A stretch of 29,475 nucleotides of DNA from a virus (IMGVR_UViG_2778261167_000005:1-29475); one strand, 5' to 3'; positions 19,652 through 21,288 are shown, counted from the stretch's first letter. Program-made: numbers and translations. Notes: generated from the letters alone by a model not told the origin.

Positions 19652-19664
19652 ATTATATCCAATA

Positions 19665-19684
19665 AGCCCAAGTGAATGGGCTTA
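19665..19684. terminator. Hairpin between Rz (plus) and the convergent moron gene (minus)
   Basis: AAGCCCA/TGGGCTT 7-bp perfect stem, 6-nt loop; weak flanking T-run. Confidence 0.35.
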
Positions 19685-19689
19685 AGTGT

Positions 19690-20100
19690 TTAAACGCATT
19701 CCACTTGACCTGGAATAGAGCAATTTGGAGTTATGTCATGAGTAGTCATTCCCCACTTGTTAGGATCTGAGTTATTCCTAAAATGCAATTGGAGTTTGAA
19801 ATTCTGATCGTTACATTGGGTCTCAAGTATGAGTTGATACTTACCTTGATCAAAGCAAGTGTCGCAGTCACTGAAGCAGTTTTGTTTAATTTGAGGCATG
19901 GGGAAAAATTCCCCCCAATTACCAGAACTTCCTGTCATTTTGGCTTTAATAAGTGTATATCCAGCTGTTCGCAATCTCAGGAAAACACCGTAACGGTTTG
20001 TTAAAGCAGAAGTGACATTGGGTGAGCTTAGTGAGATTTCTTCTTCTGTAGAATCATAAAGTTGCATCTCTTGATTTGAAGATCTAATTAGATTTTCCAT
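19690..20100 (-). CDS. Uncharacterized Cys-containing protein in the low-GC moron (136 aa)
   Basis: Start taken at ATG 20100 with GGAG RBS (alternative ATG 20202); AT-rich; opposite strand to the lysis and packaging genes. Confidence 0.5.
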   Translation of the reverse strand: MENLIRSSNQEMQLYDSTEEEISLSSPNVTSALTNRYGVFLRLRTAGYTLIKAKMTGSSGNWGEFFPMPQIKQNCFSDCDTCFDQGKYQLILETQCNDQNFKLQLHFRNNSDPNKWGMTTHDITPNCSIPGQVECV

Positions 20101-20238
20101 TTGTTTCTCCAACTCGATGAAAAAACGGGACCCATTACACAAATTTATGTATAGGTTCCCTCTTGGGCAACACAGATGATAGGTTCGCTTACTTCTTACC
20201 ATAGGTCATCAATGAAATTATTTTAATAGGAAAGAAGC

Positions 20239-20343
20239 ATGAGCAAACCGGACTGGGACGAGCTACAGCAACGGTTCCTGTCAAATTGTCAAGATGTACT
20301 ACTAGTGCCAGAGCGAATCGGAGCGGTCATGCCAAAAAGTTAG
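20239..20343 (+). pseudogene. Truncated duplicate of the terS 5' end (34-aa remnant)
   Basis: ATGAGCAAaCCGGACTGGGAcG at 20239..20260 matches the terS start at 21289..21310 with 2 mismatches; the frame ends after 34 codons in unrelated sequence. Confidence 0.5.
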
Positions 20344-20415
20344 TTTTGAAGGGTTTGATTATTGATGTGGTGGACATATATACAGGTTGTGGTATGTCGC
20401 CACTCATTTAGGGTA

Positions 20416-20649
20416 ATGACCATGAATCAGGCTATCGAGCAAGTAATTTATAATGCCATGAGAAGAAATGAAATCGGAGCTGGCGTTGGTTCTTCTGCTA
20501 CAGCTAATGAAATCATTAAAGGGATAAAACCCTATTATCAAGCAGCGAGTCAGACGGAGAGGCAGGCTATCATCGAAAGGCTAAACAAACTAAAAGTAGA
20601 GCCTGGTGTCCCGATCCCATCTAATATCGAACAGCTATTAAGTAATTGA
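20416..20649 (+). CDS. Small hypothetical protein in the moron island
   Basis: About 77 aa (ATG 20416 or 20422); followed by an intrinsic terminator. Confidence 0.45.
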   Translation: MTMNQAIEQVIYNAMRRNEIGAGVGSSATANEIIKGIKPYYQAASQTERQAIIERLNKLKVEPGVPIPSNIEQLLSN

Positions 20650-20655
20650 TAACAA

Positions 20656-20682
20656 GCCGCCTACGGGCGGTTTTTTATTGCC
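20656..20682 (+). terminator. Intrinsic terminator
   Basis: GCCGCC-TAC-GGGCGG stem then TTTTTTATT. Confidence 0.65.
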
Positions 20683-20736
20683 ATCACCATGGGCAGAACT
20701 ATCGTAATGGCAATATTGAGCATCGTTACTAACTTT

Positions 20737-21165
20737 TCATTGTTGCTGTGTATCTATAATCTCAGACGTGCTCTTATCGATTTCTTGTAAAATATGCTCA
20801 ACCTGGTTATTGAACCCCTTGAATTTAATGACACGCTTAGTGATTTTTCTTCCCTCACCATTGAGTCCAAGTGACACTTTCTCAGTTGAAGCTTTTGCGC
20901 CTAATTCAGCCGATGCGGAGCCATCATAGAACTCTTCAATTTCAACTTCTTCAGCCGCGAGAATTCTTCTTGCTATAGCGAGTTCTTGTTGGACTTTTGC
21001 CTGAGATTGAAAAACTAACGACTGAAGTTCCGCCTTTTGGGCTTCATCAGATAGTTGGGCTGAAGTCTGTGCGCTATCAGTCGATTTTTTACTAAAGGCT
21101 TCAATAGCCTTTCGTGCCGCTAATTCAATAACTAAACCGGTAGCTCCGCCATAAAGTCCTAACAT
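20737..21165 (-). CDS. Uncharacterized protein with N-terminal hydrophobic segment and coiled-coil region (142 aa)
   Basis: Start taken at ATG 21165 (the ORF-track start 21207 is TTG); low GC; opposite strand. Confidence 0.45.
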   Translation of the reverse strand: MLGLYGGATGLVIELAARKAIEAFSKKSTDSAQTSAQLSDEAQKAELQSLVFQSQAKVQQELAIARRILAAEEVEIEEFYDGSASAELGAKASTEKVSLGLNGEGRKITKRVIKFKGFNNQVEHILQEIDKSTSEIIDTQQQ

Positions 21166-21288
21166 CAGTTTTACCCTGTAGAGTGTGGTTGATTGAGGTA
21201 TCGGCAAAGTAATTAGATAACTTAACTTTAATCGAATGATTTTTTCACTTTATTTTCAGTCGTCACAATCTCTAAAAAGGAATGTCTA

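Follow-up and report, generated by a model that had tools for sequence, protein, structure and literature searches.

Here we describe a stretch of viral DNA of 29,475 nucleotides (nt) (IMGVR_UViG_2778261167_000005:1-29475, hereafter the window) in which the interval 19652-21288 is a genuine hypervariable accessory, or "moron", slot at the lysis-packaging junction of the Q-antiterminated late operon of a lambdoid prophage. Three small open reading frames (ORFs), ORF1, ORF2 and ORF3, occupy the interval in the orientation minus, plus, minus, and alignments with related phages have shown four separable pieces: an ORF1 antisense cassette, a 15-codon fossil of a foreign terS gene, an ORF2 moron and an ORF3 antisense cassette. 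We consider it probable that this content was built by successive staggered recombination between different phages and not by a single three-gene insertion, a judgement that covers the whole explanation developed below, including the proposed expression and function of the genes. A cargo slot of this sort is an ordinary phage feature; two of its proteins, ORF1 and ORF3, come from undescribed families.

Stacking of cassettes between Rz and terS

The elements of the slot, in the coordinates of the window, are the following.

19663-19684, no strand assigned: hairpin of 8 bp between the convergent Rz and ORF1 stop codons, candidate ORF1 terminator without a U-tract
19690-20100, minus strand: ORF1, 136 amino acids, antisense to the late operon; rare undescribed family, modelled as a cysteine-rich beta-sandwich
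20101-20238, minus strand: ORF1 upstream region with a GGAG ribosome-binding site, from the sequence
20225-20283, plus strand: terS fossil, comprising the ribosome-binding site and first 15 codons, MSKPDWDELQQRFLS, from a direct repeat and alignments
20351-20421, plus strand: conserved promoter-like region and leader of ORF2, from cross-lineage conservation
20422-20649, plus strand: ORF2, 75 amino acids, small soluble protein, sense with the late operon; phrog_18074
20654-20716, plus strand: double hairpin, consisting of an intrinsic terminator (20654-20673) with its T-run and a second long hairpin (20676-20715)
20737-21165, minus strand: ORF3, 142 amino acids, antisense to the late operon; widespread unannotated solo-gene family of approximately 140 amino acids
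21166-21274, minus strand: AT-rich ORF3 upstream region, presumed promoter, from an alignment of 8 lineages

Each cassette is present or absent independently of the others among phages that share flanks. A prophage lineage of E. coli (L002, L004-L006 and L120) matches positions 18398-20695 at 96-98%; beyond 20695 it carries a 72-amino-acid gene, a DUF1441-type terS and a lambda GpA-type terL, and thus has no ORF3 and another terminase. Locus L081 matches only 20245-20718, that is, the fossil, ORF2 and the double-hairpin element, and has other antisense genes where ORF1 would be. Hafnia and E. coli loci (L083, L086, L024 and L026) match only about 20351-20695, and two IMG/VR contigs (L093 and L094) match only 20651-21335, the element plus ORF3. 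The Klebsiella phages 2b LV-2017, ST101-KPC2phi6.1 and KO-TP1, whose terS and terL are nearly the same as those of the window, hold approximately 900-1000 bp of unrelated content from Rz to terS. Comparison with related prophages thus yielded lineages lacking one or more of the three cassettes. An earlier note on this DNA, made by a model from the sequence alone, had described the interval as a three-gene island at a typical accessory cargo site. The cargo site is borne out: Klebsiella phages with the same terS and terL differ in content, the E. coli lineage swaps ORF3, and the Tai/Ati genes of phage phi80, described below, hold the same position. The island as one unit is not, because the three genes differ in distribution and junctions and the fossil parts ORF1 from ORF2; they were therefore probably acquired as separate cassettes.

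The coding part of the fossil, 20239-20283, reads MSKPDWDELQQRFLS and lies between ORF1 and ORF2. Positions 20225-20258 are a direct repeat of the start region of the functional terS gene at 21275-21308, covering the ribosome-binding site and first codons, and the fossil is 82-95% identical to the terS 5' ends of Klebsiella phages. It aligns with terS of L027, L068 and phage 5 LV-2017, the similarity stopping at approximately 20283, and its parent was a terS of the Terminase_2 type, about 330 amino acids long and differing from the terS of this phage, whose 5' ends 20239-20283 matches at about 89-95%. The fossil marks an old recombination joint. A second, independent case of stacking with fossils of flanking genes is L068, a prophage of Enterobacter quasiroggenkampii, in which an extra partial Rz (6466-6765) and an extra terS 5' fragment (7218-7255) bracket an ORF3 homologue. 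The simplest reading would be repeated staggered recombination at the conserved flanks of the slot, each event adding cargo and leaving a fossil.

As a separate observation, the fossil retains a ribosome-binding site and an ATG, stays open for 34 codons (20239-20343) and is annotated as a gene in several contigs; this ORF would yield a micro-protein from the late transcript.

At least one of the exchanges appears to be young. Between two phage lineages the lysozyme gene (18654-19199) is 9.7% divergent, whereas positions 19200-20421, holding Rz, ORF1, the fossil and the ORF2 leader, diverge by at most 1%, and the ORF1 block must therefore have moved between both phages recently. The step between the lysozyme gene and the Rz-ORF1 block indicates a sharp mosaic boundary left by a very recent exchange.

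The other conspicuous junction lies in the double-hairpin element, which starts immediately past the ORF2 stop codon and lies between ORF2 and the convergent ORF3. A terminator scan called 20654-20673 as a canonical intrinsic terminator, an inverted repeat was detected in the element, and the whole folds at -29.7 kcal/mol (z-score -5.0); the same two hairpins form in the copies of E. coli C4, CobraSix and FDAARGOS_1277. The element, of approximately 63 nt, has no match in Rfam; at 85-90% identity it recurs in Enterobacter phages, and 49 of 5426 complete E. coli genomes have a copy. Its copies (among them L020 3001-3064, L076 2501-2561, L077 2501-2569, L078 2501-2566 and L079 2501-2562) come from many lambdoid prophages that are otherwise unrelated. 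They always lie in the Rz-to-terS slot, where the gene immediately preceding them is a DUF4145 gene or one of several unrelated small genes and where terS sometimes follows at once. The second hairpin is a terminator in its own right in some lineages; in this phage its inner stem is degraded. Because the mosaic junction with the other phage lineage, at 20695, falls within the element, it would act as a shared boundary for cargo exchange, and its appearance is that of a recombination linker or of a border common to different cassettes. Taken together, the dissection suggests how such slots fill: recombination at Rz, at the terS 5' end and at the double-hairpin terminator stacks cassettes.

In the E. 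coli FDAARGOS_1277 prophage a DUF4145-domain gene (L078 1822-2505) sits in the Rz-to-terS slot and is followed by the double-hairpin element, which illustrates the breadth of cargo using this boundary.

The traces of recombination could also be taken as decaying debris, the ORFs being relics without present function. The terS fossil, the degraded inner stem of the second hairpin and the lack of a detectable ORF1 or ORF3 promoter would agree with such decay. We nevertheless judge it very improbable: the three ORFs are intact and their families conserve length and motifs, substitutions in ORF2 follow a coding pattern, the modelled ORF1 folds confidently and its cysteine pairs covary, and the ORF1 protein is identical in 41 contigs from two phage lineages.

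The reading of stacked, intact cassettes is joined by a distinct base composition. The fraction of guanine plus cytosine (GC) is 0.38-0.43 across 19600-21249 and 0.50-0.56 on each side when counted in steps of 300 nt; for 19652-21288 as a whole it is 0.400 versus 0.51-0.56 in the flanks, as the earlier note had said in calling the stretch between Rz/Rz1 and terS low in GC. At third codon positions (GC3) the values are 0.33, 0.36 and 0.32 for ORF1, ORF2 and ORF3, and 0.56-0.72 for lysozyme, Rz, terS and terL. The genes on either side of the slot are listed below.

17043-17867: Q antiterminator, upstream flank (Pfam)
18347-18682: holin, upstream flank (Pfam)
18654-19199: lysozyme, upstream flank (Pfam)
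19136-19651, plus strand: Rz spanin, final lysis gene of the Q-dependent late operon (Pfam Phage_lysis, expectation value (E) 2e-35)
19383-19607: Rz1, inside Rz (ORF list)
21289-21891, plus strand: functional terS, right flank (phrog_1206, E 8e-94)
21891-23363: terL, directly after terS

The order Q, holin, lysozyme and Rz on one side and terS and terL on the other identifies the region as the lysis-packaging junction of a Q-dependent late operon, and the same order is found in an identical 45-kb metagenome scaffold. The terS and terL DNA is 88-92% identical to that of Klebsiella phages, the match beginning exactly at the terS ribosome-binding site or ATG. Promoter and terminator scans of the region gave calls at chance level (4 promoters against 3.9 expected, 3 terminators against 2.1 expected). 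The island and each ORF were also compared, as DNA and by tblastn, with 50,697 phage records; apart from the terS fossil and the terminator element, nothing was matched.

Two observations concern the gap between Q and holin. Positions 18097-18249, within an ORF at 17911-18249, match phrog_1856, whose role is unannotated (E 8.5e-37 over 61 residues), and a similar gene lies at the equal position in the Enterobacter prophage L068; this small gene is another conserved late-leader gene without an assigned role. In L081 (1-884), a prophage with related holin and lysozyme genes, the stretch immediately upstream of the holin gene is taken up by a large antisense gene for an AAA_15/AAA_21 ATPase, and these phages therefore seem to have a second cargo slot from Q to holin.

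The three genes and their families

The three small ORFs that the earlier note had placed on alternating strands are all real genes, with 34 relatives for ORF1, 13 clusters for ORF2 and at least 194 clusters for ORF3. The starts it gave hold for ORF1 (20100) and ORF3 (21165), and that of ORF2 moves from 20416 to 20422. It had also assigned each gene a terminator or hairpin of its own, which is right for ORF2, with its canonical terminator, and partly so for ORF1, with its hairpin without a U-tract, and does not hold for ORF3. Its statement that none resembles a familiar protein stands: scans of the three ORFs with Pfam, NCBIfam, PADLOC and PHROG gave a sole match, that of ORF2 to phrog_18074, a group of unknown function; Pfam, PHROG and PADLOC scans with whole family alignments gave no useful match; sequence-profile searches of the Protein Data Bank (PDB) with the ORF1, ORF2 and ORF3 families gave nothing; and no known defence, toxin-antitoxin or conversion family matches any of the three. 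Hydropathy analysis gave no transmembrane helix or signal peptide in any of them.

ORF2 matches phrog_18074, which has no annotated function, over its full length (E 1.4e-40), and its family has no match in Pfam or the PDB. The conserved start is 20422, since relatives read ATA at 20416 and the PHROG profile begins at MNQ. An N-terminal extension from the TTG at 20362, in a frame without a stop codon, is disfavoured, since conservation is confined to the ATG at 20422, which is also where the profile begins. All 13 clusters of the family encode 75 amino acids and all are from Enterobacteriaceae. Identity by codon position is 0.87, 0.905 and 0.77 at positions 1, 2 and 3, respectively, a pattern which shows a coding gene under purifying selection.

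The sequence preceding ORF2 is conserved better still. Over 7 lineages the 60 nt before its ATG show 88-98% identity, compared with 85% in the coding sequence and 77% at its third positions. In the window this region consists of TTGATT (20355-20360), 16 nt, TATATA (20377-20382) and a leader of approximately 35 nt that includes an AGGG ribosome-binding site, and across lineages the motif is TTGAT(A/T), N16/17, TATATA. We infer that the TTGATT/TATATA region is the ORF2 promoter; with a conserved promoter-like leader, an ORF and a terminator within a late operon, ORF2 would then have a textbook moron layout.

In every context examined ORF2 is in sense orientation, between the spanin gene and terS, usually approximately 90 nt before terS. 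These contexts amount to at least 8 backgrounds, with several lysis cassettes and four terS types (phrog_1206, DUF1441, Terminase_2 and Terminase_4), and often, as in Hafnia and E. coli loci, no antisense gene accompanies it between spanin gene and terS. A tblastn search of the 50,697 phage records with ORF2 returned nothing; the gene is missing from most lambdoid phages and from the closest relatives of this phage's terS and terL. The earlier note had held that conservation as core genes would speak against cargo. For ORF2 that holds in part: its position before terS is conserved in many phages, and it is still accessory because it is absent from the closest terS relatives.

This positional regularity raises a real alternative, namely that ORF2 is a dispensable late function at the packaging/lysis transition, acting with terminase or on late mRNA, and that only ORF1 and ORF3 are morons. 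A gene that is always sense and always last before terS, at approximately 90 nt, in at least 8 backgrounds and with 4 terS families, and whose codon-position pattern is that of purifying selection, is what this alternative predicts. It is, however, at odds with the absence of ORF2 from the closest terS/terL relatives and from most lambdoid phages, with its low GC3 of 0.36 and with the one or two intrinsic terminators that follow it within the operon, and its coexistence with unrelated terminase types speaks against a specific partner. On balance we regard a late function as unlikely and prefer the moron reading of ORF2.

ORF1 has a much narrower distribution. A word-indexed search of 5.8 billion proteins found one 90% cluster, its own (E. 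coli, 41 contigs), and an exhaustive phmmer search of 1.84 billion representatives found 34 remote relatives in which the cysteine pattern is conserved. Most of these are 130-145 amino acids long and lie on short metagenome contigs, with at most 53% identity; one sits in an integrative conjugative element near TraG_N, and relatives occur as solo genes. Pfam and PDB sequence searches matched no member of the family. The start at 20100 is backed by the GGAG ribosome-binding site and by the closest relative, P0135, which aligns from residue 1; a 170-residue database version is probably over-extended, since homologue alignments favour the shorter start. The upstream region 20101-20238 is identical in the second phage lineage. 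The hairpin at 19663-19684 folds at -15.6 kcal/mol, with z-scores of -4.25 on the minus strand and -2.9 on the plus strand, and was not called by the terminator scan.

An AlphaFold2 model of ORF1 built on the family alignment (predicted local distance difference test (pLDDT) 90.6, predicted template-modelling score (pTM) 0.82) is a beta-sandwich with one short helix. Foldseek searches of the PDB and BFVD with this model gave nothing significant (best E 0.07 and 0.01; template-modelling (TM) score at most 0.43). LPMO/CBM33, MD-2 and VHL, considered as fold kin, were set aside as weak top matches with TM scores of at most 0.43 that reflect generic beta-sandwich similarity.

Four cysteines of the family, Cys75, Cys82, Cys96 and Cys127, are near-invariant. 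A further pair, Cys79 and Cys135, follows an all-or-none rule in the 33 family sequences (both in 18, neither in 15, never one alone); relatives without this pair usually retain six cysteines, and in one relative, P0156, Cys96 and Cys127 are lost jointly. This paired presence and loss argues for disulfides. A zinc or other metal site was considered and rejected in favour of disulfides, because the cysteines go in pairs and other pairs replace them. The highest 19-residue Kyte-Doolittle hydropathy of ORF1 is 0.39, its N-terminus is not hydrophobic and so gives no export signal, and N-termini resembling a signal peptide or lipobox occur in just 4 of 33 relatives.

Distant ORF1 relatives mostly keep L-I-N-x-(T/S)-D, that is, an N-x-S/T sequon, in the columns of ORF1 residues 41-46, where ORF1 and its nearest relatives carry LRLRTAG instead.

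ORF3 belongs to the widest of the three families, with at least 194 clusters in a large protein collection and no match in Pfam, PHROG, NCBIfam or PADLOC. Its start at 21165 is conserved in relatives as ATGTTAGGACTTTAT, and homologue alignments favour it over a 156-residue version. Some 45 nt before the ATG a CGATA(A/C)C motif is conserved in the 8 lineages aligned, and the region 21166-21274 is the putative ORF3 promoter. ORF3 has no terminator of its own; in the reverse direction it shares the ORF2 element.

From Enterobacteria to Bacillus and Clostridium, the family core QAKVxQELAIARRIxxAEEVEIEEFYD...SLGLxGEGRKVTKRVIKFKG is near-invariant, and its portion AEEVEIEEFY...GRKVTKRVIKFKG surrounds an amphipathic beta-hairpin. 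In the AlphaFold2 model (pLDDT 66.7), two helices are followed by a long beta-hairpin with strands 73-93 and 96-116, and a further helix forms the C-terminus. Averaged over the family, hydropathy has a period of 2 in residues 84-93 and 97-105, with a hydrophobic face formed by A/G86, L88, L90, A92, V97, L99 and L101, and an invariant acidic strand (72-81) pairs with a basic strand (106-116). The only Foldseek matches of the model are membrane stems of beta-barrel pore toxins, and these are weak (E 0.1-2, 44 columns, TM score at most 0.26). The model thus suggests that ORF3 may be an oligomeric, membrane-active hairpin protein.

Homologues of ORF3 lie antisense in the Rz-terS slot in Pseudescherichia (82%), Enterobacter (69%) and Pantoea (55%). 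The homologue of the E. coli E24377A/SE11 type, WP_001004432.1 (47%), is in the same slot and adjoins the same hairpin element; a literature search on WP_001004432 found no paper. Other relatives are antisense in two further prophages, one of Delftia and one of Bacillus, the latter copy near terS, and one in Pectobacterium stands alone at a variable chromosomal spot. In 31 IMG/VR contigs that encode a relative, its orientation with respect to the dominant flanking strand is antisense in 20, sense in 7 and mixed in 4. We restrict the antisense claim to viral contigs and called genes; that ORF3 is always antisense was rejected, orientations being mixed at genomic loci, where ORF calling was crude.

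A scan of one genome per species placed ORF3 relatives at 49 loci in many phyla. All-against-all clustering of the neighbours at 52 loci, these 49 and three others, found no conserved neighbour, so a conserved partner gene for ORF3 was discarded. By Pfam counts, integrases and terminases are neighbours at a minority of loci.

In two related Burkholderiaceae genomes only, dynamin-like GTPases lie upstream of the ORF3 homologue. There (Burkholderia / Paraburkholderia; L051 1036-6312 and L061 1134-6429) a same-strand cluster encodes a small GTPase, a Ser-rich protein and two dynamin-like proteins, with the ORF3 homologue last; in these two related genomes alone, it hints at a membrane-related role.

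The distributions also bear on the toxin-antitoxin genes that the earlier note had offered among possible cargo. In such a module ORF3 could, for instance, be the toxin and ORF2 the antitoxin. Small adjacent low-GC genes on a mobile element, one with a hairpin that is possibly membrane-active, would suit it. Yet neighbours in the slot are either convergent or divergent, ORF2 and ORF3 being convergent and not co-transcribed, relatives of ORF3 at 49 species loci have no conserved neighbour, those of ORF2 occur without ORF3 and those of ORF1 alone, and no toxin-antitoxin model of Pfam or PADLOC matched. Because each gene occurs without the others, these independent distributions largely refute a toxin-antitoxin pair, which we hold to be extremely improbable, and they leave separately acquired cassettes as the preferred reading.

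Proposed expression and function in the lysogen

For the stacked cassettes we propose the following scheme. In the lysogen, ORF1 and ORF3 would be transcribed from weak promoters of their own against the silent late operon, and ORF2 from its own promoter, with transcription halting at the tandem hairpins; this halt would keep terS silent and spare ORF3 antisense transcription. Upon induction, Q-modified RNA polymerase would pass the hairpins and transcribe ORF2 with the late genes, and late transcription running antisense across ORF1 and ORF3 would dampen both, an effect demonstrated for taiEcA in phi80. As to the proteins, the weakest step of the scheme, ORF3 could be an oligomer whose amphipathic beta-hairpin acts on the membrane with a pore-like or abortive effect, ORF1 may be a disulfide-stabilised binding module, and ORF2 may be a small cytoplasmic protein binding another factor.

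Such genes would benefit the lysogen, most plausibly by interfering with other phages through exclusion or defence; for any one gene this is a tentative proposal, with somewhat less than an even chance of being right. A bolder version, which we think unlikely, holds that the ORF3 family is a hitherto undescribed class of effectors, minimal and encoded by single genes, that phages carry in many bacterial phyla; its members would oligomerise into a small beta-barrel pore or membrane lesion and work in superinfection exclusion or abortive infection. Independently, ORF1 would be the founder of a new fold family found on mobile elements, a disulfide-rich beta-sandwich able to enter an oxidising compartment although it lacks a classical signal peptide.

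Several results weigh against this scheme. The -10 hexamer of ORF2 is non-canonical and fails the rule of the scanner, so its promoter was not called; the promoter scan likewise called no promoter-like site upstream of ORF1 (20101-20238) and no consensus promoter for ORF3. ORF2 is often alone, sense and directly before terS, and could therefore be a late phage function and not lysogen cargo. The defence models of PADLOC-DB v2 match none of ORF1, ORF2 and ORF3, and 30 members of the ORF3 family gave one marginal match only (E 0.002). ORF1 seems to be disulfide-bonded yet has no signal peptide, which fits no simple localisation. The ORF3 model is of moderate confidence, with the pLDDT of 66.7 overall falling to 49-63 at the hairpin tip, and the matches to toxin stems could come from any long hairpin. 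Finally, some ORF3 relatives sit in ordinary chromosomal surroundings, such as behind dnaK or rsmB, and 7 of the 31 viral contigs carry theirs in sense orientation; the family is therefore not strictly prophage cargo.

The three genes are uncharacterised, testable candidates in a slot known for genes of benefit to the lysogen (bor, Tai/Ati), and two of them, ORF1 and ORF3, represent families without a description in any library searched. Were a function found for ORF3, hundreds of genes, from those of Enterobacteria to those of Bacillus and cyanobacteria, would gain an annotation.

Comparison with known systems

The bor gene of phage lambda lies just after Rz and before the packaging genes, in antisense orientation. 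The classical concept of the moron, a gene unit defined by its promoter-ORF-terminator layout, reportedly goes back to Juhala, Hendrix et al. in 2000. The slot resembles bor in position, in the antisense orientation of ORF1 and ORF3 and in its deviant base composition. Unlike bor, it shows no Bor homology and no lipoprotein or signal peptide, and it holds three stacked cassettes and a terS fossil where lambda has one gene.

The long predicted beta-hairpin of the ORF3 family recalls beta-barrel pore toxins such as Vibrio cholerae cytolysin, gamma-haemolysin, NetF and CDTb: its centre, of approximately 10 + 10 residues, alternates hydrophobic residues with polar ones or glycine throughout the family, and the stems of these toxins gave the best Foldseek matches. 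ORF3 differs from them in having 142 amino acids only, with neither cap or rim domains nor a secretion signal, and the fold matches are weak.

The closest parallel in layout is phage phi80, in which the slot before the packaging genes holds Tai/Ati, a pair whose roles in defence and counter-defence have been shown by experiment (He et al. 2024, PMC11364771). TaiEcA and AtiEcA act in tail-assembly inhibition, as defence and counter-defence, and their arrangement has been termed a 'noncontiguous operon' (PMC11364771). The taiEcA gene (gp52, 204 amino acids) runs antisense to the Q operon; the lysogen expresses it, and its expression falls once the late transcript is driven by Q. The atiEcA gene (gp51, 76 amino acids), beside taiEcA, is sense and late-expressed (PMC11364771). 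The window shares with phi80 the slot in the Q operon upstream of the packaging module and an antisense gene next to a sense gene of about 75 amino acids. It departs from Tai/Ati in that ORF2 commonly has no antisense partner and has its own terminator, and in that the fossil parts ORF1 from ORF2.

The likeness could be taken further, with ORF1 or ORF3 as a constitutive antisense anti-phage effector and the late ORF2, its 75 residues close to the 76 of gp51, as an antidote against self-targeting. Beyond the common slot and architecture, all sampled contigs with ORF1 also hold ORF2, approximately 220 bp apart, and Rz, ORF1 and the ORF2 leader were transferred as one block at no more than 1% divergence. 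BLASTP of ORF1 and ORF3 against phi80 gp52 and of ORF2 against gp51, however, gave no significant alignment, so that neither ORF1 nor ORF3 has sequence similarity to TaiEcA, nor ORF2 to AtiEcA. Homologues of ORF2 are often found without an antisense gene (Hafnia, E. coli) or with unrelated ones (L081), the promoter-like leader and terminator of ORF2 would be needless for a purely late antidote, and the terS fossil between ORF1 and ORF2 implies that both were joined secondarily. An effector-antidote pair of this kind thus seems unlikely to us, and we retain independent cassettes sharing a slot.

For phrog_18074 itself, an unannotated family, the analysis adds its rule of placement directly before terS, its conserved leader and its double-hairpin terminator, and the leader together with the terminator element of approximately 63 nt can be used to locate the slot and its cargo in other prophages.

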